DNA from: Mustelus asterias
Taxonomy: Eukaryota
Length of the DNA: 64,000 bases
Assembly: GCF_964213995.1 (NCBI RefSeq)
Contig: NC_135829.1
Location: 17,670,001-17,734,000, forward strand
Reading direction: 5' to 3'
Positions 18,448 to 53,750 of this stretch are shown here, in pieces. Made by a program: the position numbers and the translations under genes. The notes under the pieces are model-generated. The model did not search any database. It was not told the DNA's origin and was given only the letters and a program-made list of their open reading frames with translations. Within the stretch, counting starts at the first letter, position 1. Every line of letters begins with the position of its first letter.

Positions 18448-21400
18448 CTAGATATTAAGAGAGATTGTGTTTAATGAGGATTAGCAGCAATCGGGGACAA
18501 ACAATTATAGCGGACTGTTTCACTACATGGGATAAATGTTCAGGAGTTTTAGAGCAGTTACAGGGTTGGATTATATTGAAAGAATGAAACCACTTACATT
18601 TCCCTCCCTGGGTTTCAGTTTTGTCTCCATTACTTAGGAAAATAGAAAATGAAACAGTAAAAATTGAGTCACAAAAGATTCAAACAATATTAAACAGCTC
18701 CAAGTGGAGACTTGATTCAACCATTTTTTCCATGGGATCTGGATTTGAATCTAGCCCAGACTGAAATTCTCTCATTCATATTGTTTCTCTCATTGTTCTT
18801 CTTATCTCTCTGATCCTCCCTGTCTGTCCTTCACATTGTCTCTCTGATCCTCCCTCCCTCCCTGTGTGTATCTCTCCTTGTCTTTCTGTGTCTCTCTCAT
18901 TGACTCCATCACGAGGATGACCAACGCCCAGTGCAAGGGGTGGGTGTGCCTCTAAACCTCAGTGGGGTGGGGTGGGGTGAACTACACACAATCCATTCAG
19001 CTACAGGAGGACCCAAAACCAGGCCAGGCCAAATGCATGCTCAGAAACGACCTGTAAAAGAAGAAACTGGGGACAAAAGACGTCCCAGGAAGGCCTGAGC
19101 CACAGGGACACAGGGTGAAAGGCCAACCTACGGGACAGTCCTGAAAATGCAGGATGGTTGGTCAGCCTGGTCAGGATTCTCCAGCTCTGCCCATGGCAGG
19201 AAACATCACGGGTAGGACGGAAAATTTGACGGACCAGCAAAAGGTCCATTGACTTAGAGTGGAACAAGTGGTGGCAGAGGCTGGGGATTGGATGGGTAGA
19301 AGAACAAAAGAGAAGTTCTGTCATTGAAGGAAGGATAGGCGAGATTAAATGACGAAAGGTTCCAGGGTAAAAAGTCAAAAGTCGTGGTAAAGGGACGTAA
19401 AGAAACAAAAGCTGTGTCTAGAAGAGGTGTGAATGACAGGAAAGCAACCATCTGAATGTAAAGTAAAGAAACTGAGAAAGAAGTAAGGGAAAAACAAACA
19501 AAGCTTCAAAAAGAAAGATGCAAAACAAAATGAGGGCAGAGATTATCATTTAAAATTGTTGCCCAGAAGACTGTAAAGTTGAAATTGAGGTGCGGTTCCT
19601 TGTACTTGTATTGAATTTCATTGGAACTTTGCCACAAGCCAAGGACAGAGCAAGGTGGAGAATTAAAATGTCAAGTAACTGGGAGCGTGGGGTCACGCTC
19701 ACGGACTGAATTGGAGTGTTCCACAAAATGGTCACCCAGTCTGTACTTAGTCTCCCCAAAGTAGAGGAGGCAATGTAATAAGCAGCAAATACAAAAACTA
19801 ACTACATTTTGTAAAAACGGGTAAATCGCTGTTCCACTTGGAATGAGTGTTTGGGGCCTTGAATGGTGAGAAAGGAGGAGATAGAAGGTCACAAGTTGTA
19901 TCTCTCATTCTTGCACTGAAAGGGAGTGTTGGGGGTAACCAAGGGGTGAGCCAGGTTCTTGTGAAGGGAACAGTCTCTTTAGAGTGCTGAAAGGGGAGGG
20001 GATGGGTAGATGTGTTTGGTGATTGGAGGTAGTGGCAATGGAGGACCATCCATTGACTATGGAGACTGGTGGGGTGGGAGATGAGGATATGGGATTCTGA
20101 AAGGAAGGGGAAGGGGAGGGAGCAGAAGTGCAGGCAAAAGTACAAACAGGGCCAAGTACCTTGCTGTGGTGAACCATTGTTGGTTCCCACCAGGTAGTGC
20201 TGAGCCATGGTCTGACCAGTACTATGAGTCTGTATATATGTTACTGTTGGGGTTAGGGTTGGGCTGTTCTACCTGTTAATATTGTTGTTATGGTACACCC
20301 CAGTCGGCTCCGCCTCCTGGGAGAGGTATAAAGGTCACTGCTCTGCCTGGTGACCCTTTAGTCTGGGATCGTGTACTGTATATGGTAGCTCTGTTATTGT
20401 TGGCAATAAAAGCCTTTATTTCCCGAGTACATCACGCCTCTCGTGTGTTATATCACGCATCAATTTTCTTGCCAACAAGTAAATTCTTTTTTTTTGAAAA
20501 AAAAAACGACGAAGAAAACATGGAGCAAATGCTTAAATCCGAACGGTTTACGTTGGACCCACGTGCGGCGGGCGCTTCGAACACTTTCGACCACTGGTTG
20601 AAGTGTTTCCAGGATTACCTCGACGCCTCCACAGCGGTCAATGACGACGCCGACAGACTCCGGGTCCTCCACGCGAGGGTAAGCGACGCTGTATACCTGG
20701 TGATCCGTGGGGCCGCCGACTACAAAGGGGCCCTCGAGCTTCTCAAGAAGCGATACAACAAACCGCCGAACGAGATGCATGCTCGATATCTTCTAGCCAC
20801 TCGACGGCGGCAGCCCGGCGAAACGACGGAACAGTACGCGTGCGAGCTTCAACAGCTAGCCAGAGCCTGCAACTGCAAGGCAGTGTCGGCAGACCAGTAC
20901 ATGAACGACCTAGCTCGAGATGCGTTCGTGGCGGGAATCGGCTCGTCGTACATCCGTCTTCGCATGTTGGAGCAAGGTAACCTCGATCTCACTAAATCCA
21001 TAGAGTTAGCTGACGCTCTAGAAACGGCCTCCAAAAGTCTGGCGATGTACCCCGACGACCACGTGGAGACAGCGTGGCAGGGGCAGTCGCAGACTCCACT
21101 TCATTCAGCGGGACCGAAAAACTGCGCGATCGCGTTCCCAGCCTCGGACCTGACGACGGCAGCAGCTCCAGGTGGCCCACGGTGTTACTTCTGTCGGGGG
21201 GTGAAACACCCTCGGCAGCGATGTCCAGCTAAAGCGGTGTTGTGCTCCGGCTGCGGCAAGAAGGGGCACTATTCCAAGGTATGCCGGTCCAAACTTCCAT
21301 CCAAGAACAGCAGTGCGGCGTGTGACTCCCCAGAGCCGGCCTCCTTGTCTTCTGCATCTTCAAGGTCTTCCGCAACGTGCGATTCCAGGACGTCGCCATT

Positions 21401-24400
21401 CCGGACGACGGAGTCGCAAGACACGTGCGACCTGCAGGGGCCGCAGGTTTTGGCGCCATCATCCACATGCAACCTATGGGGTCAGCCATTTTGGTCGGCA
21501 CCGACCGCAAATGACCAGCAGGGGTCGTCATCAACCATCTCAGCCACCTGCAGTTGCGCCCACGAACCAACGGTGGCGTCGATCATCCTGGACCAGGCCA
21601 AGCCTCACAGACTCGACAAGTCCATGATGGACATACAGGTAAACAAATGCCCGATTTATTGTTTGTTTGACAGCGGGAGCACGGAGAGCTTCATTCACCC
21701 TGACACCGTGAAGGGGTGTGGTCTCCAGATTCGGACTGTCAAGCAGACAATTTCGATGGCGTCAAGGTCCCGGTCTGTCACTGTGCTAGGGAGCTGCGTG
21801 GTAAATCTGACGGTGCAGGACACAGTCTACGAGAACTTCAAGCTCCTTGTGTTACCGCACCTTTGCGCGCCAATACTCCTAGGACTAGATTTTATGGTCC
21901 ACTTAAAGAGTGTAACCCTGCAGTACGGTGGGCCACTCCCTCCGCTTTCAGTGGGAGACCCGCAGCCTCTAAATTGCCCAACGCGCTCCACATGTAGTCT
22001 CTCAACGCTTAGGATTACCACACCCTCCCTATTCCAGAATCTTGTGCCAGGCTGCAAGCCCATCGCAACAAAGAGCAGGCGTTACAGCGCTGAAGATCGG
22101 ATCTTCATTCGATCTGAAGATCAGCGGCTCCTCAAGGAAGGGATCATCCAACCTAGCGCTAGTCCTTGGAGAGCGCAAGTCGTGGTGGTTAAGAATGGGA
22201 ACAAACCCCAGATGGTCATAGACTATAGTCAGACCATTAACAGATACACGCAGCTGGATGCGTATCCCCTCCCGCGCATATCTGACATGGTCAATCAGAT
22301 TGCGCAGTACCGGGTGTTCTCCACCATCGACTTAAAATCTGCTTACCACCAACTCCCCATTCGCCCAGAGGACCGACAATACACGGCCTTTGAGGCGGAT
22401 GGTCGCCTGTATCAATTTTTAAGGGTTCCTTTTGGTGTCACGAATGGGGTCTCGGTCTTCCAGCGTGCTATGGACCGAATGGTGGACCAGAACGGACTGC
22501 GGGCTACCTTCCCGTACCTGGACAACGTCACCATCTGCGGCCATGACCAGCAGGACCACGATACCAACCTTCTTAGATTCTTATGCACTGCATCTCGCCT
22601 GAATCTGACCTACAACAGGGAGAAGTGTGCATTCCGCACGCGCCGCCTAGCTATCCTTGGATACGTGGTGGAAAATGGGGTCCTTGGCCCTGATCCAGAC
22701 CGTATGCGTCCCCTCCTCGAACTTCCCCTGCCCACTAGCGTCAAAGCACTGAGAAGATGCTTCGGCTTCTTCTCATACTACGCACAGTGGGTTCCCAATT
22801 ACGCGGACAAAGCCCGTCCGCTCATCAAGTCTACCTCTTTTCCCCTAGCAACAGAGGCTCGATTAGCCTTTGCAAGAATAAAAGCCAACATCGTGAAAGC
22901 CACGATGCACGCTATCGATGAGTCCATCCCCTTCCAGGTGGAGAGTGATGCATCTGATTTCGCCCTGGCCGCCACACTTAACCAGGCGGGCAGGCCCGTC
23001 GCCTTTTTCTCTCGCACCCTCCAAGGCCCTGAAATTCGACATTCGGTGGTGGAAAAGGAGGCCCAGGCCATTGTGGAGGCCGTTCGGCATTGGCGCCATT
23101 ACTTGGCGGGCAAACGGTTCACTCTGCTCACGGACCAGCGGTCCGTGGCGTTCATGTTCAACAACACGTTACGGGGTAAGATCAAGAATGATAAGATCTT
23201 GAGGTGGAGAATCGAACTCTCCACCTACAATTATGATATCATGTATCGTCCAGGGAATCTCAACGAGCCCTCGGATGCCCTGTCGCGCTAGTATGCAGGA
23301 GAATCGATTGCAGGCTCTCCACAATGACCTCTGCCATCCGGGGGTCACTCGGCTCTACCACTTCATAAAAGCCCGGAATCTACCCTACTCGGTGGAGGAT
23401 GTCAGGTCCATAACCAGAAGCTGCCGGGTATGTGCGGAATGCAAACCGCACTTCTACCGACCTGACAGGGCACAACTCGTTAAGGCCACTCGTCCCTTCG
23501 AAAGACTGAGTGTGGACTTAAAGGGCCCCCTTCCCTCGACAGATCGGAACGTGTACTTCCTCAATGTGGTTGATGAGTACTCACGATTCCCTTTTGTCAT
23601 TCCCTGTTCTGATATGACCGCTGCCACGGTTATCAAGGCATTCCGTGATCTTTTCACCCTGTTCGGTTACCCCTGTTACATCCACAGCGATAGGGGCTCG
23701 TCGTTCATGAGCGATGACTTGAGGCAATACCTGCTCTCATATGGGATTGCCTCTAGTAGAACCACGAGCTACAACCCAAGGGGTAACGGACAGGTCGAAC
23801 GAGAGAATGCTACAGTCTGGAAGGCTGTCTTATTGGCGTTGAGGTCTAAAGGTCTTCCAGTCTCTCGTTGGCAAGAGGTACTCCCTGATGCGCTCCACTC
23901 CATACGCTCACTCCTGTGTACGGCAACCAACGCTACTCCTCATGAGAGAATGTTTTCATTCCTTAGGAAGTCTTCCTCTGGGACCTCATTACCGTCTTGG
24001 TTGACGTACTCAGGACCTGTCCTCCTGCGGCGGCATGTTAGGACCCGCAAGTCCGACCCTTTGGTTGAACAGGTCCATCTCCTCCACGCCGACCCTCAGT
24101 ATGCCTACGTGGCATATCCTGGCGGGCGAGAGGACACGGTCTCGATTCGAGATCTGGCGCCAGCAGGGGGCTTGGAAACCCCTGTCGCTCCCACATCTAC
24201 TGTTACGGACCCCCCAACCATTATTTCCCCTCCTGACACGGCGCGGGCAGTATCGGGACCACCACTTAACCCTCTTACTCCCATGTACAGCTTGCCTGAG
24301 TCCAGGAGATGGTCGCCACTTCAAGGCGTGCCCGAGTTCAGCGGATTGTCACCACCTCGGGGTCTACCGGCTCGTGAGGCACTGGAGGAGTCGCTGGACA

Positions 24401-27400
24401 TCGCCTTGGAGAGAACGTCACCGCGATTGCCTGAACCGGTGTTATCGCCGGTGTTGAGGAGGACACAACGATGGTGCAGTCCCCCTGACCGTTTGAACTT
24501 ATAGACAAATGGACTATTTTTCTGTGCTTTGTACCCCGCCGGCCTTTGTTTTCAAAGGAGGGGTGAATGTGGTGAACCATTGTTGGTTCCCACCAGGTAG
24601 TGCTGAGCCATGGTCTGACCAGTACTATGAGTCTGTATATATGTTACTGTTGGGGTTAGGGTTGGGCTGTTCTACCTGTTAATATTGTTGTTATGGTACA
24701 CCCCAGTCGGCTCCGCCTCCTGGGAGAGGTATAAAGGTCACTGCTCTGCCTGGTGACCCTTTAGTCTGGGATCGTGTACTGTATATGGTAGCTCTGTTAT
24801 TGTTGGCAATAAAAGCCTTTATTTCCCGAGTACATCCAGCCTCTCGTGTGTTATATCGCGCATCACTTGCCAACCACTGTGGGACATGAGAATAGGAAGG
24901 AAGGTGCAAGCATGATGAAATCCTCGGCTGAGGGAAAAGGAAGGCATATCAAAAATGCTTATATTAAACATCAGCTTCTTCAAAAAATGAGATGGCAATG
25001 GAGAACATGGGAAAATGAACTAGAATCTTTACATGAAATGGAGTGGGAGAAAATGTAGTTAGATAATTGTCAAGTCTGTGTGAATATTGGCATCCCCAGA
25101 AATTGAGTCAGCAAAGTCAAGGAAGGGAAGCAAAGAGTCAGAGACGGACCAAGTGAAAATGAGAGAAGGGTGGAAATTGGATGCAAAGCCAATGACAATT
25201 CAGAGAGCAGGGTGAGACCTGGAAATGTTGCTGACATTGTTATCAATGTACAAGAAAAAGAGATGAGGGAGAAAGCCTAAGGAGGATGGGAGTAAAGATT
25301 ATTTCACATTGATTCTCTCACTATCTCTTTACCTGGCTCTCTCTTGCCCAGTTTCTTTGTTTAATTCTCTCTCTCGTTCTGTCTTTATGTCCGTCTCTCT
25401 TTTCTCGCTGTCTCTCTCCCTTTCTCGCTGTCTCTCTCTCTCCCTTTCTCGCTGTCTCTCTCTCTCCCTTTCTCGCTGTCTCTCTCCCTTTCTCGCTATC
25501 TCTCTCACTTTCTCGCTGCCTCTTTCTCGCTGTCTCTCTCACTTTCTCGCTGCCTCTTTCTCGCTGTCTCTCTCCCTTTCTCACTGTCTCTCTCCCTTTC
25601 TCGCTATCTCTCTCCCTTGCTCGCTGTCTCTCTCCCTTGCTCGCTGTCTCTCTCCCTTTCTCGCTGTCTCTCTCTCTTTCTCATTGTCTCTCTCCCTTTC
25701 TCACTGTCTCTCTCCCTTTCTCACTGTCTCTCTCCCCTTCTCACTGTCTCTCTCCCCTTCTCACTGTCTCTCTCCCTTTCTCACTGTCTCTCTCTCCCTT
25801 TCTCACTGTCTCTCTCTCCCTTTCTCACTGTCTCTCTCCCTTTCTCGCTGTCTCTCTCTCTCGCTGTCTCTCTCTCCCTTTCTCGCTGTCTCTCTCCCTT
25901 TCTCGCTGTCTCTCTCTCTCCCTTTCTCACTGCCTCTCTCCCTTTCTCGCTGTCTCTCTCTCTCCCTTTCTTGCTGTCTCTCTCCCTTTCTCGCTATCTC
26001 TCTCCCTTTCTCGCTGTCTCTCTCCCTTTCTCGCTGTCTCTCTCCCTTTCTCGCTATCTCTCTCCCTTTCTCGCTATCTCTCTCCCGTTCTCGCTGTCTC
26101 TCTCACTTTCTCGCTGTCTCTCTCACTTTCTCGCTGTCTCTCTCACTTTCTCGCTGTCTCTCTCACTTTCTCACTTTCTCTCTCCCTTTCTCACTGTCTC
26201 TCTCCCTTTCACACTGTCTCTCTCTCCCTTTCTCGCTGTCTCTCTCCCTTTCTCACTGTCTCTCTCCCTTTCTCACTGTCTCTCTCCCCTTCTCACTCTC
26301 TCTCTCCCCTTCTCACTCTCTCTCTCTCCTTCTCACTCTCTCTCTCCCCTTCTCACTCTTTCTCTCCCTTTCTCGCTGTCTCTCTCCCTTTCTCGCTGTC
26401 TCTCTCCCTTTCTCGCTGTCTCTCTCCCTTTCTCGCTGTCTCTCTCCCTTTCTCACTGTCGCTCCCGTTCTCGCTGTCTCTCCCTTTCTCACTGTCTCCC
26501 TGTAACGTGAGCAGTCCTCTCTGCAATGAGTTTTCACAATCAAGTTCCAATCCAGTTCCTCGCCCAGAACTGTTCATCGTTCAGTAAACCAGTTGGAGTC
26601 AATTGATGATTATGATTAAAATAAACCAAAATATTATTCTGACAAAAGTTTAAAAAAATAACTTCATACAGGGTAAAGAGAGAAGCTATTCTGATGTTGA
26701 GATAATGGGACACTATCAAATCAGGACGTGAGTACTTTACACAATCTCTGGCCATTCTATAGCTGATTTACAATTGTTTGGTTGTGAGATTGGAAGTAAA
26801 ATCAGAACATGGCTTGCATTCTGTGATGGAATAGATTCATATTTTAGGATCTTTATTTAATTCAAGTCTAAACTATTGATAAAATCCCTCTTTCTATCTC
26901 TCCCTCTCGTTCTCTCTCTGTCCATTTGTTTTTCTTTGTCTTTATCACAGTCTCTAACTCTCTCTTTCCCTCCAAGGATCCTTGGTGCAATAAGCTTGAT
27001 TGTCTAGATTCAGAGTGGTAAGAAAGTCCAACAATTTTAGATCATAATTTGCCTTCTCTTGTTTATTTCTTAGCTCCTCTACTTTGCATTCAGATGGTTG
27101 CTTTCTTGCCATTTACACCTCTTCTAGACACATCTTTTGTTTCTTCTATTGTCCAATCACCACTCCCTTTGACTTTTTACCCTAAAAGTTTTGGTCATTT
27201 AATTCTTGCTGCCATGGGGAGTGGTTGAAGCTAACAGTGTAGATACATTTAAGGGGAAGCTGGACAAGTACATGAGGGGGAAGTGAATAGAGGGTTACAA
27301 TGATAGATCAAGACGAGGAAAGATGGGATGAGGCTTTAGTAAAGTATTAAGAGCAGCTGGTTGCCCTGACAGGTCTGTTCCTATGTCACATATCCGATGT

Positions 27401-30400: not shown

Positions 30401-33400
30401 GTTGAGGTGTGAGTGTCTGGAGAGTCTGCACTTTTTGTCACACTGAGGGAGATGTTTGCTGTAATCTTCCAGACAGGTTTCCCTGAAGCCTGACCGTGTA
30501 CAACACAGAGATAGCTCCCAGTGTCCAACTCCTTCACTGAGTGAATAGTGAGGTTGTGAGTCTGGATTTTATTTGTTGGATTGTTTGAGCTTTGGTTGGA
30601 GATTCTTTGTGATGACTCTTTATCCACACAGCAGTGTGTGTTAGAATGTGGGCTATAACCCTCAATATGAACAGAGTGCAGACACTTGTTGATATTTCCA
30701 GATATGATCCAAAGCAGAGTGAAGGGCAGAGATTTTCTATTCTCAAACTGGCAGGGTAAAGTCACATTCTCTCCCTCTGCTACAGTCAGTGACGAGGAAG
30801 TTTCAACAGCAGAAAATACTTCATCCGAATCTAGAAACAATATTGAAAAGAATAATTTTACTCAAATAATCTCCAACGCGGTACTTTGTCAAAGGGTTTC
30901 CAAAAGTCCATGTTAACTACATTCACTGCATTTCTCCATCTACTTTGTCTGTTACCTCCTCAACAGTTTATCAAGAACATCGGGCAGAATTTTTCGTTCT
31001 TTTGTGGCCTGCCAGCTCCACTGCCGGCTTTTCCCACCATAATTTTTGATACTTGTTCAAAATAAATTCAGGAGGTGGGTCCCAAATGTCACGCTGGCGG
31101 GGCAGCCACTGATTGAACCTGTCCCTCCAGCAACCTCAGACTTCAAGAGACCCGGCATCTTTCAAACCAAACCAATAAAAAAAAGAGGGGATCCCACCGT
31201 CCCCCACCCCCCCCCCCCCCCCTCCACGGACATGGGGAGCCCGCTCCCTCCCATCGCCCTCCACTTCCACGCAGACGCCCCTTCCCAGCGATGCCCCCAT
31301 CACCAGGGAATACCATCTCCCACAGACCTCCCCATTGGAAGCCCACTCTCTCCGGCAATTCCCTCTGGCACTGCAGTGCCAAGGGGCAGTGTCAGGAGAT
31401 GCTGCCAGGACAGTTTCCAGGCATGACCCTCTACCCCCTTGGGGCTGTACTTCCTGTGCACCCAAGGTGGGTTCTCTTCGCTAGGTCCCTGTTTGTGCCA
31501 TGGTGGCACAGCGGTTAGAACTGCTGCCTCACAGCGCCAGGGACCCGGGTTCGATTCCCGGCTTGGGTCACTGTCTGTGCGGAGTCTGCACGTTCTCCCC
31601 GTGTCTGCGTGGGTTTCCTCTGGGTGCTCTGGTTTCCTCTCATAGTCTGTTTAGGTGCATTGGCCGTGCTAAATTCTCCGTCAGTGTACCCGAACAGGTG
31701 CCACACAGGGATTTTCGCAGGGGATTTTCACAGTAACTTCATTGCAGTATTAATGTAAGCCTACCTGTGACTGTAATAAATAAACTTTAAAACTTTAAAC
31801 TGTTTGTCAAAAGCTGTTATAAACCCCACTGAAGCGAGGGGGGAAATTGAAGGGTAAGGGGACAATAGAGTGGGAAGCCCGTTAATGAGATTAAAATGTG
31901 TGGCAATGGGATTCCCGACCTTTCATGGCAGGAACTAACATCACAGACGGGAAATCCCGACTGCGTAAAAGCCATTTGGGGACTCCCGTTGATTCTCCGG
32001 CCCCACCGCCATTCCCACTGACCAAAAACGGGGGAAAATCCTGGCCATCATCTTTGGAATCTGTCGGTTGCGTCTCAATTTTTACTCTTTATTTACATGC
32101 TTGATAATTTCATCTCCATAAAGAATCTATAATTGTCTCGAATGGCAGCTATTTGTCCTAATGCCTCCCCTAATATCTCAGCTTAAATCTTCCCAATGTC
32201 CCCCTGTGATAATTCCCCCGATATCTCCAGTTCACTCACCGTCCGGGTTTATCACAAAGAACAAGTTGTGGTTTTCACATCCCTCCCCTGTCAGGGTTTT
32301 CCAGTTTGGACATTTTGATGATTCTGTGGAATCCTGAACCGTGCAGGTAAATATCATCGAATCATCACATAGCATCACATCGAATGTCAGTGAATTCATT
32401 TCACTTTCATTTCTTTTGCTTGTTTGACACTGCAGCTTCTCTTTCTGTTTCTCATGATCGATATTTTCACAATCCTGCATTTTCTTCTCTTCTGTCTCAC
32501 ATTGTATTTTCTCAATTTCTATTTCAGCACTGAAATCCCGAATGCTGCACAATGTTCCGACATTCCCAGCACCAGTGGGTGTGTTGCATTGCAGAGTGGT
32601 GACATCTCCTGATCCTCGAAAATGGAGATAGGTGGATCCTGCAGGGATAAGGACAGAATTGGACGGAGATAAATAACATTCCATACAGGAAAGATAATTA
32701 AACATTAATGTTCATCAAAACCTCGCGCAGTAAATGAACAATTGTGATTTTTGTTAGTCCACACAATGAGCTGGTCCTGGACCAAATTGACATGGGGAAG
32801 GGTAAGGTATTGGAGGTGTTGGCAGCCTTAAAAGTGAATAAATCTCCAGATCCTGTTGAATTGTGCCGTAGGCTGCTGTAGGATGCAAGAGAGGAGATTG
32901 CAGGGGCTCTGACCCAAATTTTCAATTTCTCTCTGGCCACGGGGAGGTGCCAGATGACTGGAGAACAGCTAATGTGGTTCCCCTATTTAAGAAGGGTTGT
33001 CGAGATAAACCAGGGAACTACAGACCAGCGAGTCTCACAGCAGTGAATAGAAAACTATTGGAGGAACTTCTGAAGGAGAGCATCTATTTCCACTCAGGGA
33101 TAGTCAGCATGGCTTCGTCAGAGGGAGGCCTAACAAATTTGATTGAATTTTGACCATGTGTGTAGATAAGGGTAGCGCAATCGGTTAGGTTTATATGGAT
33201 TTCAGCAAAGCTTTGAAAAGGTCCCACATGGGAGACTTGTAAAGAAGGCAAATGCACATGGGATACAGGGTAATTTGATAAAGTGGATTCAAAATTGGTT
33301 TAGCAGTAGAAGTTAGAGAGTGATGGCAGAAGGTTGCTTCAGTGACTGGAAGCCAGTTTCCAGTGTCATACCGCAGGGATCTGTGCTGGGCCACCTATTA

Positions 33401-36400
33401 TTTGTAATTAATATAAATGACATAGATGACTATAGATGACTGTAGATTCACCAGGATGCTGTCTGGGATGGAACATTTAAGTTCTGAAGAGAGGTTGGGT
33501 GGGCTTGGGTTGTTTTCGCAGAGAAGACTGAGGGGTGTTCTGATCGAGGTGTACAAGATTATGAGGGACATGGACAGAGTGGATAAGGAGCAGATGTTGC
33601 CCTTAGTTGAACGGTCAGTCACGAGGGGACTTAGGTTCAAGATGAAGGGCAGGAGGTTTAGGGGGGATGTGAGGAAAAGCTTTTTTACCCAGAGGGTGGT
33701 GATGGTCTGGAATGCGCTGCCTGGTAGGGTGGTAGAGGCGAGTTGCCTCACGTCCTTTAAAAAGTATCTGGATGAGCACTTGGCACATCATAACATTCAG
33801 GGCTGTGGGCCAAGTGCTGGCAGAAGGGATTAGGTTGGAGGTCAGGTGTTTCTAATGTGTCAGTGCGGACTCGATGGGCTGAAGGGCCTCTTCTACGCTG
33901 TATGATACTATGATTCTATGATTGCTGCTCCATTCTTAAATCTTTGGAATGTATCAATATTTGCCAATTACTGGGACAGCTATAGACTGAATTTTTCTGA
34001 AAGGTAAACAATCATAAGGAAACCCCTCACAAAATTATTAAAAATCATCTCAAAATCTCATAAAATATTTATTTTTATTCATTTACTGGATGTGGGTGTC
34101 ACTGGCAAGGCCAGCATTTATTGCCCATCCCTAATTGCTCATGAGAAGGTGCTGGTGAGCTGCCTTCATAGAAATCATAGAAACCTTACAGTGCAGAAAG
34201 AGGCCATTTGGCCCATCGAGTCTGCAAAGAACAAAGAACAGTACAGCACAGGAAACAGGCCCTTCGGCCCTCCAAGCCTGTGCCGCTCATTGGTCCAACT
34301 AGACCATTCGTTTGTACCCCTCCATTCCCAGACTGCTCATGTGACTATTCAGGTAAGTCTTAAACGATGCCTCCACCACCCTACTTGGCAGCGCATTCCA
34401 GGCCCCCACCACTCTCTGTGTAAAAAACGTCCCTCTGATATCTGAGTTATACCTCGCCCCTCTCACCTTGAGCCCGTGACCCCTCGTGATCGTCACCTCC
34501 AACCTGGGAAAAAGCTTCCCACTGTTCACCCTATCTATCCCCTTCATAATCTTATACACCTCTATTAGGTCTCCCCTCATTCTCCGTCTTTCCAGTGAGA
34601 ACAAGCTCAGTTTACCCAATCTCTCCTCATAGCTAAGACCCTCCATACCAGGCAACATCCTGGTAAACCTTCTCTGCACTCTCTCTAAAGCCTCCACGTC
34701 CTTCTGGTAGTGCGGCGACCAGAACTGGACGCAGTACTCCAAATGTGGCCTAACCAGCATTCTATAAGCTGCAACATCAGACTCCAGCTTTTATACTCTA
34801 TACCCCGTCCTATAAAGGCAAGCATACCATATGCCTTCTTCACCACCTTCTCCACCTGTGCTGCCACCTTCAAGGATTTGTGGACTTGCACACCTAGGTC
34901 CCTCTGTGTTTCTATATTCTTGATGGCTCTGCCATTTATTGTATAACTCCCCCCCTACATTAGTTCTTCCAAAATGCATCACTTCGCATTTATCTGGATT
35001 AAATTCCATCTGCCATTTCTCCGCCCAATTTTCCAGCCTATCTGTATCCTGCTGTATTGTCCGACGATGTTCATCGCTATCCGCAAGTCCAGCCATCTTC
35101 GTGTCATCCGCAAACTTGCTGATTACACCAGTTACACCTTCTTCCAAATCATTTATATATATCACAACTAGCAGAGGTCCCAGTACAGAGCCCTGCGGAA
35201 CACCACTGGTCACGGACCTCCAGCCGGAAAAAGACTCTTCGACTGCTACCCTCTGTCTCCTGTGGCCAAGCCAGTTCTCTACCCATCTCGCCACCTCTCC
35301 TTGTATCCCATGAGCCTTAACCTTCTTAACAAACCTGCCATGAGGGACTTTGTCAAATGCCTTACTGAAATCCATACAGACGACATCCATGGCCCTTCCT
35401 TCGCCAACCGCTTTTGTCACTTCCTCAAAAAACTCCACCAAATTTGTAAGGCACGACCTCCCTCTTACAAAACCATGCTGTCTGTCACTAATGAGATTGT
35501 TCCGTTCTAAATGCGCATACATCCTGTCTCTAAGAATCCTCTCCAACAACACCGACCACAATCCCACCCAGGCCCTACGCCCATTTCCCTACATATTCAC
35601 CCGCTAATCCCTCTAACCTACGCATCTCAGGACACTAAGGGGCAATTTTAGCATGGCCAATCAACCTAACCCGCACATCTTTGGACTGTGGGAGGAAACC
35701 GGAGCACCCGGAGGAAATCCACGCAGACATGAGGAGAATGTGCAAACTCCACACAGACAGTGACCCAAGCCGGGAATCGAACCCAGGTCCCTGGAGCTGT
35801 GAAGAAGCAGTGCTAACCGCAGTGCTAACCACTGTGCTACTGTGCCTTCTTGAACCACTGCAATTCATGTGGTCACTTTGACCCAGTGACAGTGAAAGAA
35901 CAGTGATATATTTCAAAGTCAGGCTTGTGAGTGGCTTTGAGGGGAACTTGCAGGTGGTAGTGTTCCCATGTGTCTGCTGCCCTTGTCCTTTAAGATGGTC
36001 GTGGGCTTGGAAGATGCTGTCTAAGGAGCAATGGCGAATTCCTGAAGTGCATTTTGCAGATGGTACATATTGCTGCCACTGTGTGTCAGTGATGGAGGGA
36101 GTGAATGTTTATGGATGGGGTGCCAATCAAGTGGCTGTCCTAGCTGGTGTCAAACGTCTTGCTTGCTGTTGGAGCTGCACTCATCCAGGCAAGTGGAGAG
36201 TATTCCATCACACTCCTGACTTGTGTCTTGGAGAATGTAGACATGGGAATGAAAGGCTTTTTGAAAGTCTGTGGTACAGACAGCTGAGATCCTGAAAATC
36301 TTTTTGATTCCAACTCATTAATGAAACAAGTTGTAATAGATCAAGGGCAACTTGATGCAGCTTTAACAATCAAGCCTTTATTGCCAACGAAGCATTTATA

Positions 36401-39400: not shown

Positions 39401-42400
39401 TCAAACAATGACGAGACAGAGTACAGGAATGAGATAGAGAATCTGGTGAATTGGTACGGCGACAATAAACTCTCCCTCAATGTCAACAAAACGAAGGAGA
39501 TTGTCATCGACTTCAGGAAGGGTAGTGGAGAACATGCCCCTGTCTACATCAATGGGGGCGAAGTAGAAAGGGTCGAGAGCTTCAGGTTTTTAGGTGTCCA
39601 GATCACCAACACCTGTCCTGGTCCCCCCATTCCGATACTATAGTTAAAAAAGCCCACCAACACCTCTACTTTCTCAGAAGACTAAGGAAATTTGGCATGT
39701 CAGCTACGACTCTCACCAACTTTTACATATGCACCATAGAAAGCATTTTTTCTGGTTGTATCACAGCTTGGTATGGGCTCCTGCTGTGTCCAAGACCGCA
39801 AGAAACTACAAAAGATCATGAATGTAGCCCAATCCGTCACACAAACCAGCCTTCCATCCATTGAATCTGTCGACACTTCCCGCTGCCTCGGAAAAGCAGC
39901 CAGCATAATTAAGGACCCCACGCACCCGGACATTCTCTCTTCCACCTTCTTCCAGCAGGAAAAAGAGACAAAAGTCTGAGATCATGTACCAACTGACTCA
40001 AGAACAGCGTCTTCCCTGCTGCCATCAGACTTTTGAATGGACCTATCTTGCATTAAGTTGATTTATCTCTACACCCTAGCTATGACTGTAACACTACATT
40101 CTGCACTCTTACGTTTCCTTCTCTATGAACGGTATGCTTTGTCTGTATATAGCGTGCAAGAAACAATACTTTTCACTGTATACTAATACATGTGACAATA
40201 ATAAATCAAATCAAATCAAATGCGACAACCCATTATACAGGAAGTAGTAGCTGGAAATTTAGAAAACCATAACATAATCAAAACTTGTACACAAATCACT
40301 AAATATTAGCATACAGATACAGCAAAAATTAGGAAGGCAAATAGAATGTTGTCCTTTATTGCAAGAGGGATACAGTATATAATTGTTACAACTGTACAGG
40401 GTATTGGTGAGACTTACCCTAGAATATTGTGTACGGTTCTATTCTCCTTACTTAAGCAGCATTGGAGAAAGTTCAGAGAAGGTTTGCTAGTTTGATTTCT
40501 GGGACGAAGGGTTATCTTATGTGGAAAGGTTGACTAGGTACCTGTAGAGTTTAGAAGAATGTGAGGTGATCTTATTGAAGCATGTAAGATTCTGGGGTGC
40601 TTGATGGAGTAGGTGCTAGAGGATGTTTCCCTTTATGAAGGAAGAATCTAGAACTAGGGGGATGTTTCAATATAAGGGGTCTCCCATTTAGGACAGAGAA
40701 AGATTTTCTTCCCTCAGAGGGTCATTAATCTTTGGAATTCTTTACCCCAGGGTGTAATGGAGACTGGATCATTGAATATATTCATGGCTGAGCTTTGACT
40801 GACAAGCAAGTCAAGGTTTGTGGGCGGGTAGGTAGGAAAGTGAAGTTGAGGCCATGATAGATCAGCAATGATCTTATTGCATAATACAGCAGGATCGAGG
40901 GGCTGAATGGCCCAATTCTTTTCTTATCTCTTATGTTGTGTCTCTCCAAAACCCAGTTTAGGACATAGAACAGTACAGCACAGAACAGGCCCTTCGGCCC
41001 ACGATGTTGTGCCGTGTTTGTTGACACTATTCTTACAGAGATCCATTTGTACCTGTGTGGTGAACCATTGTTGGTTCCCACCAGGTAGTGCTGAGCCATG
41101 GTCTGGCCAGTACTATGAGTCTGTAGATATGTTACTGTTGGGGTTAGGGTTGGGCTGTTCTACCTGTTAATATAGTCCTTATGGTACACCCCAGTCGGCT
41201 CCGCCTCCTGGGAGAGGTATAAAGGTCACTGCTCTGCCTGGTGACCCTTTAGTCTGGGATCGTATACTGTATATGGTAGCTCTGTTATTGTTGGCAATAA
41301 AAGCCTTTATTTCCCGAGTACATCCAGCCTCTCGTGTGTTATATCGCGCATCAATTTTATTGCCAACAAGTAAATTCTTTTTTTTTGAAAAAAATACGAC
41401 AAAAGAAAACATGGAGCAAATGCTTAAACCCGAACGGCTTACGTTGGACCCACGTGCGGCGGGAGCATCGAACACTTTCGACCACTGGTTGAAGTGTTTC
41501 CAAGATTACCTCGACGCCTCCACAGCGGTCACCGACGACGCCGACAGACTCCGGGTCCTCCACGCGAGGGTAAGCGACGCTGTATACCTAGCGATCCGTG
41601 GGGCCACCGACTACAAAGGGGCCCTCGAGCTTCTCAAGAAGCGATACAACAAACCGCCGAATGAGATCCATGCTCGATACCTTCTAGCCACTCGACGGCG
41701 GCAGCCCGGCGAAACGACGTAACAGTACGCGTGCGAGCTTCAGCAGCGAGCCAGAGCCTGCAACTGCAAGTCAGTGTCGGCAGACCAGTACATGAACGAC
41801 CTAGCTCGAGATGCGTTCGTGGCGGGAATTGGCTCGTCGTACATCCGCCTCCGGCAGTTGGAACAAGGTAACCTCGATCTCACTAAAACCATAGAGTTAG
41901 CTGACGCTCTAGAAACGGCCTCCAAAAGTCTGGCGATGTACCCCGACGACCACATGGAGACAGCGTGGCAGGGGCAGTCGCAGACTCCACTTCATTCAGC
42001 GGGACCGAAAAACTGCGCGATTGCGTTCCCAGCCTCGGACCTGACGACGGCAGCAGCTCCAGGTGGCCCGCGGTGTTACTTCTGTGGGGGGGGCGAAACA
42101 CCCTCGGCAGCGATGTCCAGCTAAAGCGGTATTGTGCTCCGCCTGCGGCAAGAAGGGGCACTATTCCAAGGTATGCCTGTCCAAACTTCCATCCAAGAAC
42201 AGCAGTGCGGCATGTGACTCCCCGGAGCCGGCCTCCTTGTCTTCTGCATCTTCAAGGTCTTCTACCACGTGCGATTCCAGGACGTCGCCATTCCGAACGA
42301 TGGAGTCGCAAGACACGTGCGACCTGAAGGGGCCGCAGGTTTTGGCGCCATCGTCCACGTGCGACCTATGGGGACAGCCATTTTGGTCGGCACTGACCGT

Positions 42401-45400
42401 GAATGACCAGCAGGGGTCGTCAACAACCATCTCAGCTGCCTGCAGTTGCACCCACGAACCAACGGTGGCTTCGATCATCCTAGACCAGGCCAAGACTCAC
42501 AGACTCCACAAGTCCATGATGGACATACAGGTAAACAAACGCCCAATTTATTGTTTGTTTGACAGCGGGAGCACGGAGAGCTTCATTCACCCAGACACCG
42601 TGAAGCGGTGTGGTCTCCAGATTCGGACTGTCAAGCGGACAATTTTGATGGTGTCAAGGTCCCGGTCTGTCACCGTGCTAGGGAGTTGCGTGGTCAATCT
42701 GACGGTGCAGGGCACGGTTTACGAGAACTTCAGGCTCCTTGTGTTACCGCACCTTTGCGCGCCAATACTCCTAGGACTAGATTTTATGGTCCACTTGAAG
42801 AGTGTAACCCTGCAGTACGATGGGCCACTCCCTCTGCTTTCAGTGGGAGACCCGCAGCCTCTAAATTGCCCAACACGCTCCACATGTAGTCTCTCAACGC
42901 TTACGATTACCACACCCTCCCTATTCCAGAATCTCGTGCCAGGCTGCAAGCCTATCGCAACAAAGAGCAGGCGTTACAGCGCTGAGGATCGGATCTTCAT
43001 TTGATCTGAAGTTCAGCGGCTCCTCAAGGAAGGGATCATCCAACCTAGTGCTAGTCCTTGGAGAGCGCAAGTCGTGGTGGTTAAGAATGAGAACAAACCC
43101 CGGATGGTCATTGACTATACCATTAACAGATACACGCAGCTGGATGCGTATCCCCTCCCGCGCATATCTGACATGGTCAATCAGATTGCGCAGTACCGGG
43201 TGTTCTCCACCATCGACTTAAAATCTGCTTACCACCAGCTCCCCATTCGCCCAGAGGACCGACAATACACCGCCTTTGAGGCGGATGGTCGCCTGTACCA
43301 TTTTTTAAGGGTTCCTTTTGGTGTCACCAATGGGGTCTCGGTCTTCCAGCGTGCTATGGACCGAATGGTGGACCATAACGGACTGCGGGCTACCTTCCCG
43401 TACCTGGATAACATCACCATCTGTGGCCATGACCAGCAGGACCACGATGCCAACCTTCTTAGATTCTTATGCACTGCATCTCGCCTGAATCTGACCTACA
43501 ACAGGGAGATGTGTGTATTTCGCACGCGCCACCTAGCTATCCTCGGATACGTGGTGGAAAACGGGGTCCTTGGCCCTGATCCAGACCGTATGCGTCCTCT
43601 CCTCGAACTTCCCCTGCCCACTAGCGTCAAAGCACTGAGAAGATGTTTAGGCTTCTCATACTACGCACAGTGGGTTCCCAATTACGCGGACAAAGCCCGT
43701 CCGCTCATCAAGTCTACCTCTTTTCCCCTAGCAACAGAGGCTCGCTTAGCCTTTGCAAGAATAAAAGCCGACATCGCGAAAGCCACGATGCACGCTATCG
43801 ATGAGTCCATCCCCTTCCAGGTGGAGAGTGATGCATCTGATTTCGCCCTGGCCGCCACACTTAACCAGGCGGGCAGGCCCGTCGCCTTTTTCTCTCGCAC
43901 CCTCCAAGGCCCTGAAATTCGACATTCGGCGGTGGAAAAGGAGGCCCAGGCCATTGTGGAGGCTGTTCGGCATTGGCGCCATTACTTGGCGGGAAAACGG
44001 TTCACTCTGCTCACGGACCAGCGGTCCGTGGCGTTCATGTTCAACAACACGTTACGGGGTAAGATCAAGAATGATAAGATCTTGAGGTGGAGAATCGAAC
44101 TCTCCACCTACAATTATGATATCATGTATCGTCCAGGGAAGCTCAACGAGCCCTCGGATGCCCTGTCGCGTGGAACATGCGCCAGTATGCAGGAGAATCG
44201 ATTGCAGGCTCTCCACAATGACCTCTGCCATCCGGGGGTCACTCGGCTCTTCCACTTCATAAAAGCCCGGAATCTACCCTACTCGGTGGAGGACGTCAGG
44301 TCCATAACCAGAAGCTGCCGGGTATGCGCGGAATGCAAACCGCACTTTTACCGACCTGACAGGGCACAACTCGTTAAGGCCACTCGTCCCTTCGAAAGAC
44401 TGAGTGTGGACTTTAAAGGCCCCCTTCCCTCGACAGATCGGAACGTGTACTTCCTCAATGTGGTTGATGAGTACTCACGATTCCCTTTTGTCATTCCCTG
44501 TTCTGATATGACCGTTGCCACGGTTATCAAGGCATTTCGTGATCTTTTCACCCTGTTCGGTTACCCCTGTTATATCCACAGTGATAGGGGCTCGTCGTTC
44601 ATGAGCGATGACTTGAGGCAATACCTGCTCTCATATGGGATTGCCTCTAGTAGAACCACGAGCTACAACCCAAGGGGTAACGGACAGGTCGAACGAGAGA
44701 ATGCTACAGTCTGGAAGACTGTCTTACTGGCGTTGAGGTCTAAAGGTCTTCCAGTCTCCCGTTGGCAAGAGGTACTCCCTGATGCGCTCCACTCCATACG
44801 CTCACTCCTGTGTACGGCAACCAACGCTACTCCTCATGAGAGAATGTTTTCATTCCCTAGGATGATATTCCTCTGGGACCTCATTACTGTCTTGGTTGAC
44901 GTACTCAGGACCTGTCCTCCTGCGGTGACATGTTAGGACCCGCAAGTCCGACCCTTTGGTTGAACAGGTCCATCTCCTCCACACCAACCCTCAGTTTGCC
45001 TGCGTGGCATATCTTGACGGGCGAGAGGACACGGTCTCGATTCGAGATCTGGCGCCAGCAGGGGGCTTGGAAACCCCTGTCGCTCCCACACCTCCTGTTA
45101 GGGACCCCCCAACCATTATTTCCCCTCCTGATACGGCGCGGGCAGTATCGGGACCACCACTTAACCCTCTTACTCCCGTGTACAGCTTGCCTGAGTCCAG
45201 GAGATGGTCGCCACTTCAAGGCGTGCCCGAGTTCAGCGGATTGTCACCACCTCGGGGTCTACCAGCCTGTGAGGCACTGGAGGAGTCGCTGGACACCGCC
45301 TTGGAGAGAATGTCACCGCGATTGCCTGAACCGATGTCATCGCCGGTGTTGAGGAGGTCACAACGACGGTGCGGTCCCCCAGACCGTTTGAACTTATGGA

Positions 45401-48400
45401 CAGATGAACAATTGTTCTGTGTTTTGTACCCCGCCGGCCTTTGTTTTCAAAGGAGGGGTGAATGTGGTGAACCATTGTTGGTTTCCACCAGGTAGTGCTG
45501 AGCCATGGTCTGACCAGTACTATGAGTCCGTAGATATGTTACTGTTGGGGTTAGGGTTGGGCTGTTCTACCTGTTAATACGGTCCTTATGGTACACCCCA
45601 GTCGGCTCCGCCTCCTGGGAGAGGTATAAAGGTCATTGCTCTGCCTGGTGACCCTTTAGTCTGGGATCGTATACTGTTTATGGTAGCTCTGTTATTGTTG
45701 GCAATAAAAGCCTTTATTTCCCGAGTACATCCAGCCTCTCGTGTGTTATATCGCGCATCAACCTGTATCAATGCAGCCAGTACCATCCTCTGAAATTGCT
45801 CTCCTAACAAGTTTAGTGGTTGCTCCTCTTCACCTAAGGCTCCATTCCTGGCCTTCTCCACACATACGTGCTGCCTTTAGAGTGTTACCAGGAGTCAGCC
45901 AATATAGCCAAATGTAGCAAAGTCAATCCCTCACTTCATCCCTCCATCGCTGCCCCCAGTGTGTTACTGTCTGATTTCGAATTTGACATTAAGTTCTTCT
46001 CAAACCAGAACTTTCACCAACTTAACATTGGAAAAATCAAAGCCACCCTACTTGCCTCCAATGCACACTGAAACTCCTATCTGACCCTGGGCTGAACTTC
46101 AAAACCACCACCAAATGTTGTGACTTCCTCTCCCAAATATCATCTGCCTCCATTCCTATCTCACACTGAATGCCACTAGAATCCTCCACAACTTCAATCC
46201 CTCAACCACTCACATCTCCAATCCTTTCCTCACTGGCCTCCTGAACATTACAGATCAGACTCCAGATCAACCAGAACCCATCACCTACATCCTGTCCTAA
46301 TGGCATCCCGCTCCATAATCATTCCTATCTTCCCCTCAAGCACTGAGTTTAACCCTCCTAGGACACAGAATAGCATTCTAGGCCCAATCATTCTCAGCTG
46401 CTTCACCAATGCTTTTCCCGCCATTATAAATATAGAGTTGGTGTTTACTAATGATTGCACAGTGCTCAGCATCATTTGCCATTTCCCAGTTATTGAAGTC
46501 ATCCATACCCACATGCAGCAAGACCTGAACAACATCCAGGCTTGAACTGATAAGCAACATTCACACCACAAAACTGCAGACAATGATCATTGCTTACAAG
46601 AGAGAGTCTAACCATCTCCTCCTGGCATTCAAAGGCATCACCATGGTCATATCCCCCACTCTCATTATTCCTGGTAAGTCATCATGTTCAGAAACAAAAC
46701 TGGACCAGTCAAAACTGGAAGAATGCTATGGCTCCTAAAGCAGGTCAGAGGCCTCCTGTCTCCCCAAAACATTACCAGCTACAAGGCACAGGTTAGGAGG
46801 GTAATGGAATACTCTCCACTTTTCTGGGAGAGTGCAACTGCAATTCAAGAAGTTCATCACCATCCAGCATGATTTAGGATGACTGGCTCCCCATCTATCA
46901 ACTTAGACATTCATTCTCTTCACTGTGGTGGCATCATGGTTGCAGTGTGTTCCATCTGTTAGATATGTTGCAGCAACTTACTCTCCTTCGGCAGCACCTT
47001 CCAAAATCCACAACCTCTACTATCTAGAAGGGCAAGGGCATGGGAGCATCATCACCTGTAAGTTCCCCTCCAAGTTACACACTGTCCTGATTCAGACATA
47101 AGTCACTGTTTCTTTATTGCAGCTGGGTCAAATCCTGAAACTGTCTACCTATTAGCAATGTGGAAGCGTTTACACAACATAAATCGCAATGATTCAAGAA
47201 GACGATCTATCACCACTTTCTTAAGAGTTGGGCATTAAATGTTGGACTTCGTCAACAACACTCAAACCAATATTGAATTCTTTAAAAGGTTACCAATCCT
47301 GTGTGTCCCAGTGCATTGATCTAGGATACAGCAATCAGTCTTCAGATCCCACATCCTGCGATTCTCTCCCTTACCACCTACCCACCTTAGCATATCTATG
47401 GTAAAAGTTTGTTTAAAACCTACCTCTCCAACCAAGTCACTTCCATTCACTCCCCTCCTACCTCAAGCTCATACCAATCCCCACGCTTCCACATTTGCAA
47501 AATAACACAGACTGTTCCCCACTCTGACCAAAATCCATAAATTCAACTTCTTGTTCTCATGATGTTAACTGTGGCTCAGTGACCATCACTCTCACCTCAG
47601 AGTTAGAAGATTGTGGGTTTAAGCACCCCCTCCAGAGATGTGAGTTTGAAATCTAACCTGGCACTCCAGTGCGGAACTGAGGGAGTGCTGCATGGTTGTA
47701 GGTGTCATCTTTTGGATGAGATGTTAAAGCGTGGTCTGCCCTCTCTGTTGTAGGGTAAAAATTCTGCAGCAACTATTATTCAGAAGAGTAGAGGAGTTTC
47801 CATTGGTGCCTTGTCAATATTTACCAGCTAACTAACATCACTGAAACAATCAGGCCATTATCACACTGCTGTTTGTAGGATCTATATGTGAAAATTGATG
47901 CCAAGTTTCCAGCTTTAGAACAGAAACCACATTTAGAAAGTACTTCATTGACTGTAAAGTGTTTGAATGTCCTGACATTGTGAACGGCACTATATAAATG
48001 TAAGTCTTTCTTTCATTTCTTGTAGTGAGCATGTTTCTGATGAGCATATCGAGACTATTAGAAAGGTATTTTGTGCAGTGTGTTTGAAGCTCATTTTTGA
48101 ATGGTTAAGCTGTTAAACTGTAATAACGGTGCAGTTACCCAGAGCTCTGAACAGATGCTATCATAGATTGACTGATCTGGAGCTGCAGGATCTGACTCAC
48201 ACCATTGATCTGATAACAGTACTGACAAAAACACCACTTACCAAGCTGCACCAGAGCTCAAATACAAACTAAAACTCCCAAATCAGACTCAAGTCATGAG
48301 CTGAATTTGGATTGAGGGTCGGAGCAAACATCACTTATCATTCGAGGAGCAGAAATTATCTTCAGACCCCTCCTCCATCACGTAGGCTGACTCTCACTCA

Positions 48401-52335: not shown

Positions 52336-52499
52336 GTTTGCTAGGTGTTCGTGTTCTGAAGTGCCGAATAGGGGAGCTCATAATCGATGAGGCTCAGGAG
52401 ATCTATTGACAATCCTTGGCGATCATAACAGGGGTGACTAGGGACTGAGGAAGGGAGGGTCTGAGGATAAGGGGGGCATTGGGCATTGAGCTGCTGGAC

Positions 52500-53750
52500 A
52501 ATTATTCCCCCTAAGGTGGAAAATGTGGAGGCTATGAGGGCCTCCCTGGTCCTCCGGCCCTCTACGACCCTGGCCATGGCCTGTGCAGCCTCCTCTGGGT
52601 CCTCCCCAAGCTCCATTGCCACCCAGTCCAGGTCATCCTCCTCCCCCGGTGGATCCACCTGTTCCTCCTCCTCCTCCAGAATGTCGTCCCGCTGCTGTGC
52701 CAAGCTGTGCAGGACACAGCATGCAACCACGATCTGAGCGATCCTCTGGGTGCTGTATTGCAGAGTCCCACTAGGACAGTCCAGACAGCGGAGCTGCATC
52801 TTTAGGAAGCCTATGCACTGGTCAATTATGTTCCTGGTGGCAGAGTGAGCCTCGTTGCAGTGGGTCTCTGCTTCGGTCTGGGGTCTCCACACAGGCGTCA
52901 TTAGCCATGACCTAAGCGGATAACCCTTGTCCCCCACTAGCCAGCCCCTCAGTCAACAAATACCCTTGAAGGTTCCAGATACCTCCGAGTGTCCAGGACG
53001 AATGCGTTATGCATGCTCCCAGGATAGCATGCACAGACGTGGATAATGTTTAGCTGATGGTCGCCCACCAGCTGGATATTCAGGGAGTGGAAGCCCTTCC
53101 TGTTGATGAAGGGCACTCCCTGTCGAGATGGCACTCTCAAGGCGATATGGGTACCATGGATCAGCTCCTGGTCTTGGAACATCCCAGCAATGACACTGAG
53201 TCCTACAGCTTGTGTATCCTAATGGTACATGTGGAAGGTGATGTAGTCCATTGCCCAGGCATACAGGGCATCCTTGTGGATGCATCTGTGTGCTGAAGAT
53301 TGCGAGATTCTGCACAGGTCCCTGCTCAAGCCCTGAAATGATTCGGTGGTGAAAATGTTCAGGGTAGCTGTGACTTTCACAGCCACCGGGAGCAAGTGTC
53401 CGCCTCCTCCTTTTGGTGCAAGGTAGGCAAGAACCTGGCACAGGTACTGCTCCGTGTCCCTTTGAAGGCGGAGTTGTCGGCAGCACATGTTGTCCGACAG
53501 CTTGTGAAAAGACCAGTGCCTTCTGTAAACTTGCGGCCTACAGCATCGCTGACTTCTTACCCCCTCCTCAGCCTGATGGACGGCAAGCACCTGAGCCTCT
53601 GCTGTACCTCCCTCATGCTCTAAGGCCGGGTCCTGTGGTGCTGGGTCACGCCTGTGCTGGCCTTGGTGCTCTTGCCACCACCAATCTGTCATGGCAGCAG
53701 TTGCCAGGATTAATGTGAGCTGGCATGCCTCAAATCCGAAAACCATCTTG
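52500..53750 (-). pseudogene. PIF/Harbinger transposase (HARBI1-like DDE), frameshifted
   Basis: [80 protein letters not shown]. Confidence 0.9.

Follow-up and report, generated by a model that had tools for sequence, protein, structure and literature searches.

What primes reverse transcription in a Gypsy element whose 5' long terminal repeat (LTR) is not followed by the TGG of a tRNA primer-binding site (PBS)? The question is raised by the window analysed here, a 64,000-nucleotide stretch of the Mustelus asterias genome, in which a single Gypsy family is present as two full copies, each having TG...CA LTRs of 298 nt and a polypurine tract (PPT; Table 1). The gene order gag-protease-reverse transcriptase (RT)-RNase H-integrase, the TG...CA LTRs, the PPT and a short target-site duplication (TSD) place the family in Ty3/Gypsy; the internal reading frame of copy 2 is broken at several places. 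Among the matches listed, rays and sharks supply the best named homologues (79-83%) and the next come from corals, an anemone, a sea cucumber, a damselfly and a nematode (58-65%); no relatives were found in the viral contigs searched. A sequence-only reading of the window had proposed that the PBS position is complementary to a segment of the LTR itself, here called the arm, and that the element might prime its own reverse transcription. From the sequence comparisons described below, we put the probability that the PBS of this clade pairs with its own LTR arm as a self-primer at roughly 0.85.

Table 1 Features of the two Gypsy copies, in window coordinates.
Feature	Position	Strand	Remarks
Copy 2, full element	41056-45760	+	
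5' LTR, copy 2	41056..41353	+	298 nt, TG...CA; TSD ACCTG flanks the element on both sides
TATA box TATAAA, copy 2	41218..41223	+	85 nt before arm end, 70 nt before arm start
Initiator-like TTAGTCT, copy 2 LTR	41249..41255	+	Predicted transcription start near 41251 (motif-based)
Segment with predicted pairing to the gag start codon region (41411-41417)	41279..41285	+	From folds
LTR arm, putative self-primer, copy 2	41288..41302	+	AATAAA at 41296-41301 inside
Putative primer 3' end, copy 2 arm	41302	+	Conserved RCCT directly after
Spacer, copy 2	41354..41354	+	1 nt (A); A in 43/46 types
PBS, copy 2	41355..41369	+	Exact complement of arm; no TGG
Internal region, copy 2	41411..45462	+	gag start 41411; gag, protease, RT (YLDN), RNase H, integrase
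PPT, copy 2	45449..45462	+	From sequence
3' LTR, copy 2	45463..45760	+	291/298 identical to its 5' LTR
Copy 1, full element	20165-24865	+	TSD CTTGC
5' LTR, copy 1	20165..20462	+	Arm at 20397-20411
PBS, copy 1	20464..20478	+	Complementary to arm at 14/15
gag-pol, copy 1	20520..24504	+	Frame broken between RNase H and integrase; no chromodomain
3' LTR, copy 1	24568..24865	+	295/298 identical to its 5' LTR

The surroundings of the two copies are repeat-rich. Two further RT fragments and a DDE_Tnp_4 transposase fragment lie at 11688-13616 (+), 34791-35588 (-) and 52341-52952 (-), a duplicated block (286-2166 and 4972-7198, about 5 kb apart) is 87-94% alike, and there are two low-complexity arrays (25335-26500; 48588-48932) and several SINE-like repeat families. 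Between the two copies, an open reading frame at 30226-30861 (-) with an immunoglobulin V-set domain is likely a host gene exon.

The complementarity in the window is as the sequence-only reading had described it. The PBS of copy 2, a young element, is the exact reverse complement of the 15-nt arm, starting after a single A that follows the LTR, and three further pairs past a bulged G extend the match to 18 bp; copy 1 has the same arrangement with one mismatch. The AATAAA hexamer lies inside the arm, the arm begins about 70 nt 3' of the TATA-like box, and the partner strand lies outside the LTR, the 3' LTR of copy 2 containing a second arm and no PBS. Two short alternative hairpins that had also been pointed out are both present in the sequence, of which AATAAA-agcc-TTTATT is confined to some shark families. 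The arm-PBS pair is the sole inverted match of at least 11 nt between the copy 2 LTR and the internal region. A chance origin was ruled out with Markov-shuffled LTRs, none of which, in 20,000, gave a match of at least 14 nt starting 0-5 nt from the LTR end (best, 13 nt).

Related loci were collected by protein searches of the animal's own genome, metagenomes and genome contigs. An LTR pair was found at 102 loci, 73 of which have an exact TSD (copy 1 was set by hand); after four duplicates were dropped, 69 TSD-bounded insertions remained, 63 from this genome and 6 from contigs of other animals. All 69 pair arm with PBS at the same register, one nucleotide after the CA of the LTR, at 11 or more of 13 positions (61 at 13/13, 4 at 12/13, and 4 at 11/13), counts that come from kindred sequences and are not independent trials. 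The arm ends 38-56 nt before the LTR end in these insertions, and the runner-up LTR site scores 6-10/13. When the insertions were reduced to 30 distinct TSD-defined arm/PBS types, positions 1-13 were Watson-Crick paired in 28-30 of the 30; a single position could show as many as four pair types, and just 1 of 390 cells held a G-U. Pairing drops beyond the duplex, to 21 of 30 types at position 15 and 9 of 30 at position 16, and position 0, where the spacer faces the base after the arm, is Watson-Crick in none of 46 types. The paired fraction at positions 7-13 was 0.96, versus 0.48 (maximum 0.61) with shuffled partners. The check across related families that the sequence-only reading had called for thus found the paired letters changing together in the 30 types, and RNAalifold, applied to 19 shark sequences, returned one 14-bp helix with two-sided changes at 9 of its 14 pairs.

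The signature extends beyond sharks. Among non-shark loci with a gag start, for which LTR pairs were not used and from which three loci were dropped for lack of flank, 26 of 41 match at 11 or more of 12 positions, compared with 1 of 301 control windows; the 15 misses comprise 4 decayed copies of positive families, 2 loci in which the arm is nearer than the search window, and a remainder that is unexplained. Signature-bearing loci cover the entire ingroup of a 56-row RT tree, built by a quick method with no named references, and three outgroup loci carry a TGG site. At two loci (L047, L120), only about 25 nt separate the arm from the end of the LTR, which would make for a very short strong-stop DNA. 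Contigs of 3.9-5.7 kb at L038, L047, L050, L067, L111, and L112 are circular permutations of one element and represent either one-LTR circles or collapsed assemblies. Eukaryote-type Gypsy elements also occur within contigs filed as bacterial genomes (L111-L123), probably as host contamination.

Could a host tRNA, a tRNA half or another small RNA be the primer, with the LTR match secondary? We give this almost no credence. TGG is absent within a few nucleotides of the 5' LTR in all 73 TSD-bounded elements, and the case against a tRNA is built on the covariation: because arm and PBS letters change together across the 30 types, no single tRNA could track them, and such a primer would have to end in AAA instead of CCA and to come in dozens of versions, each fitting one family's LTR. 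The best match of the tRNAs collected was 5 nt to the window PBS and 9 nt to any type, in a small, partial set (42 distinct genes, 11 anticodons) that left the TGG positive controls likewise unmatched, a point in favour of a tRNA. Separately, we observed a dense tandem array of tRNA genes in the host genome (C16:97.2-98.7 Mb) with a spacing of about 1.8 kb.

Variation within the window's own family bears on how arm and PBS stay matched. The exact junction of this family occurs at 479 places in the genome. Two sublineages, each with one arm-base change, carry the matching PBS base in 21 of 24 and 27 of 30 copies examined (of 87), and eight sporadic arm variants lack it; in one sublineage, the PBS changed although G-U would have preserved the RNA helix. 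Both LTRs were recovered in 26 of 40 elements. Where an arm variant is present in both LTRs the PBS matches in 19 of 19 cases, including 5 in which G-U would preserve the RNA helix, and the four unmatched arm variants are confined to the 5' LTR and are therefore later mutations. When a matching arm change was sought for single PBS variants, none was found (0/14); all 14 arms were unchanged, and these variants gave no instance of primer sequence being copied into the PBS. The PBS of Ty1 and Ty3 is described as not inherited from the primer (PMC5371799; this and the other papers cited here are drawn on in part). Within-family matching fits strict selection on the primer duplex as well as it fits copying. 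Diagnostic differences between 5' and 3' LTRs in the 26 of 40 pairs (23 in U3, 6 in the upstream segment, 4 in the arm, and 7 in U5) favour neither a 5' nor a 3' primer, and haplotype mosaics of 151 LTRs contained no pattern separating the two.

The two LTRs of one element often differ at sites that mark subfamilies, in the window (20434-20455 versus 24837-24858) and at L201, L305, L306, L325, L351, and L372, a pattern suggestive of mixed templates or gene conversion. In copy 1, the 3' flank (24866-24874) is a 9-nt match to the element's own PBS (20468-20476), the PBS mismatch included, and the corresponding match is at most 4 nt in the other 68 insertions; chance, conversion and target pairing are alternative explanations.

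A second line of evidence comes from aberrant insertions. We searched for a fold-back pattern, in which the PBS is followed by the complement of the bases preceding the arm, counting direct junctions only and within arm-PBS families. There were 6 fold-back junctions versus 479 normal ones in the window's family, 14 versus 471 in a second family, and 132 with one broader pattern. Among 32 fold-backs examined (examples are L441-L446, L487-L496, and L497-L526), 19 have two U3 ends, consisting of LTR, A and an inverted LTR that runs from the end of the arm back to base 1, and 18 of these 19 are surrounded by an exact 5-bp TSD. Two others (L520 and L523) run on through the PPT into the 3' internal region, and the remaining 11 are more complex, several with TSDs. 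TSDs around two U3 ends mean that the insertions were integrated in that form, from which we infer that they arose during reverse transcription. Because the arm has the sequence of the correct acceptor, plus-strand strong-stop DNA ending in a PBS copy can be extended on it, and this is the simplest origin of the fold-backs. The dead-end plus-strand strong-stop DNA of Ty3 (PMC5371799) is similar in that the plus strand has read into the primer and normal transfer fails; unlike those dead ends, the strands here appear to have been extended on the arm and integrated as palindromes with TSDs. What the fold-backs show is pairing of arm and PBS sequence, at the predicted register, in the course of reverse transcription; alone, they do not name the minus-strand primer. 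Together with the covariation, they make the self-priming that had been proposed for a chromodomain-less Gypsy lineage likely, as judged from sequence.

Where the arm lies in the transcript bears on the form of self-priming. Of 24 shark representatives, 23 have a TATA-like word (by a permissive pattern) at a distance of 82-88 nt upstream of the arm end and 22 have an initiator-like word at 50-55 nt, with a TATA-initiator spacing of 31-33 nt (22/24). These motifs predict a start near 41251 in copy 2, about 37 nt upstream of the arm, and the earlier remark that a plain Tf1 model would not put so much distance between TATA box and arm is borne out across the shark families. For 22 of 23 related representatives, the segment before the arm, predicted to pair with the gag start codon, falls within the highest-ranking 12% of LTR windows. 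A TATA box is absent from the non-shark LTRs examined, and in several of them an AG stands in an initiator-like context 11 nt ahead of the end of the arm, so that these elements may be nearer Tf1. We found no splice acceptor AG before the arm in the shark LTRs examined, in which there is only about 37 nt of room, no poly(A)-tailed retrocopy marking the transcript 3' end, and no excess of a cap signature at the predicted start in the fold-backs (1 real versus 1 at the control position; 132 unchanged). One other LTR (L053:3410-3710) has, upstream of the arm, a pyrimidine tract whose last letters are CAG and, near the LTR start, GTAATT, a possible intron.

The sequence of events that we favour would run as follows. 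Transcription would start near 41251, the arm would pair with the PBS, and the segment directly before the arm would pair with the gag AUG. A cut in the RNA after AAUAAAA (41302/41303), for which the element's own RNase H is the probable agent, as it is in Tf1, would then leave a 3'-OH; that the cut falls at the primer 3' end is suggested by the fixed register only. RT would copy U5 and the rest of R and jump to the 3' end by means of about 20 nt of R, and plus-strand strong-stop DNA would later copy 13-15 nt of the primer. Since any copy of the arm has the sequence of the correct acceptor, the plus-strand DNA would sometimes land on an arm, be extended through U3 and be integrated as a palindrome. 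By analogy with Ty3 RT, in which the polymerase-to-RNase H distance is about 13 bp (PMC5371799), the 13-15-nt duplex may be linked to the distance between the two active sites.

Two other forms of self-priming share the 0.85. In one, the priming arm would come from the 3' copy of R, either in the same RNA or in one packaged alongside it, after shortening from the poly(A) end, and the 37 nt before the arm would serve as strand-transfer homology. This would account for a start upstream of the arm, and L520 and L523, which reach the 3' internal region, indicate that a 3' arm was joined at the register at least sometimes; both are explained equally well by plus-strand DNA landing on the 3' arm. 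The conserved hairpin and the RCCT directly after the arm fit a cut in the 5' fold rather than a 3'-arm primer, and two fold-backs, one stopping at the predicted transcription start (L494) and one with a 4-nt change there (L445), fit a capped 5' primer, although they are two cases only. On this balance, we regard a 3' primer as rather unlikely. Distinctly unlikely, in our view, is the plain Tf1 scheme, by which the packaged RNA starts at the first base of the arm and its first 11-15 nt are the primer. The sharp stop of pairing at 13-15 nt, the initiator-like AG 11 nt before the end of several non-shark arms and the alternative starts of Tf2 (PMC5341516) speak for it; the regular TATA and initiator positions in sharks (31-33 nt apart, the initiator 50-55 nt before the arm end, 22/24) speak against it, as does the AUG helix, which needs the segment upstream of the arm. 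Were the helix instead there mainly to hide the 5' poly(A) signal in the style of HIV-1, some other RNA would do the priming. The arm ends in AATAAA or ATTAAA in 37 of 46 types, with matched switches between the two, the median predicted pairing of the hexamer is 0.98 in the 5' context versus 0.47 in the 3' context, and the polyA hairpin of HIV-1 (PMC2645353) is a precedent. Masking, however, requires neither a fixed one-nucleotide register nor a near-absence of G-U, there is no alternative primer site at the LTR end, the nine types without a canonical hexamer (one a decayed shark copy) keep the pairing, and in L031 and L034 the hexamer lies downstream of the arm, outside the helix. We consider a primarily masking helix very unlikely.

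Returning to a helix that serves priming, masking could still be an added role, a tentative suggestion to which we give somewhat less than even odds. Hiding the 5' poly(A) signal would be a plausible side benefit where the arm holds a hexamer. The hexamer state changes at least four times on the RT tree, and the constant feature is AAA followed by RCC-like bases (GCCT in 33/46 types, ACCT in 6/46). The coupling to poly(A) control that had been suggested is thus possible in the 37 types with a hexamer and not required, 9 of 46 lacking one; masking is not the conserved core and is at most secondary. AAUAAA is predicted to be paired at the 5' end, as in HIV-1 (PMC2645353), but the HIV-1 hairpin forms at both ends and HIV-1 is tRNA-primed, whereas here the partner strand belongs to the PBS, which lies beyond the LTR, and several lineages do without the hexamer.

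With respect to classification, two Cys/His motifs are visible in Gag, and the compact single ORF, short LTRs and two zinc-knuckle-like Gag motifs may be a likeness to Mag and Cigr-1. A chromodomain at the integrase C-terminus is usual in chromoviruses. No Chromo domain match was obtained at E<=0.1 in any of seven proteins, PF00385 was absent among the 120 homologues listed, and no RT was found in five chromodomain loci of the own genome. The clade, which would work like Tf1, is not filed as Tf1/sushi because it has no chromodomain. Any likeness to Mag and Cigr-1 would be by features only, and the RT motif here is mostly YxDN; a paper on the Mag, Cigr-1, and MolGy clades (PMC6238403) mentions the PBS 0 times in the part covered, and the searched part of its supplements contains no match to YLDN. 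In 94 of 123 proteins (window 22047-23288 and homologues) the RT active site carries YxDN in place of YxDD, and its presence in young, abundant families means that the enzyme evidently works with it.

Self-priming among Ty3/Gypsy elements is described for Tf1, Tf2, Tj1, and the Tf1/sushi chromoviruses (PMC7175516, PMC4600332, bioRxiv 10.1101/2022.12.06.519325). Like them, the window clade has a PBS adjoining the 5' LTR that complements an LTR segment, no tRNA site, and extra helices flanking the central duplex. Unlike them, it has no chromodomain, and its duplex is 13-15 nt versus 11 in Tf1. The Tf1 primer is the transcript's initial 11 bases, cut by RNase H (PMC7175516), and being at the transcript 5' end it differs in geometry from the arm here if the predicted start holds: the arm is predicted to lie about 37 nt inside the transcript, and it usually holds a poly(A) hexamer. 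The outer helix also differs, being predicted here between sequence upstream of the arm and the gag AUG, whereas the Tf1 'pretzel' involves LTR sequence downstream of the primer. Self-priming has further been predicted for Tcn1 chromoviruses and for the TAR, Houba, and Osr-1 Copia elements of plants (PMC6317226), by the same kind of reasoning from an LTR complement of at least 10 nt starting 0-5 nt after the LTR; those belong to other lineages and hosts, unlike the present animal, chromodomain-less Gypsy clade. No description of self-priming in a non-chromoviral animal Gypsy element, or of such fold-backs, was found in the literature searched, which includes the covered parts of PMC3601003, PMC6934838, PMC5006619, PMC2864245, and PMC5445492, most subscription papers and Repbase being outside its scope.

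In that literature, Tf1 is the element for which self-priming is shown, and predictions of it exist for the chromovirus relatives of Tf1 and for a single plant Copia lineage. The present analysis extends this list by an animal Gypsy clade that lacks a chromodomain, differs in predicted geometry and is abundant in a cartilaginous fish, where the exact junction occurs 479 times in one family and 471 times in another. A fuller proposal, which we hold at slightly short of even odds, is that self-priming in this clade evolved apart from Tf1 and uses an internal primer, that one 5' leader fold hides both the poly(A) signal and the gag AUG, that a single cut after AAUAAAA makes the poly(A) signal the primer, and that the arm decoys plus-strand transfer, yielding more than 100 perfect inverted-repeat insertions, an undescribed class of LTR-made fold-back elements. 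Two questions follow: how RT would make and use an internal RNA primer, and whether a poly(A) signal and a primer can be one element. An element that primes itself would not be subject to control by tRNA fragments, and it would be overlooked by annotation methods that depend on a tRNA site. The fold-back insertions would be a record, kept in the genome, of an error in reverse transcription, and may be a source of hairpin RNA.
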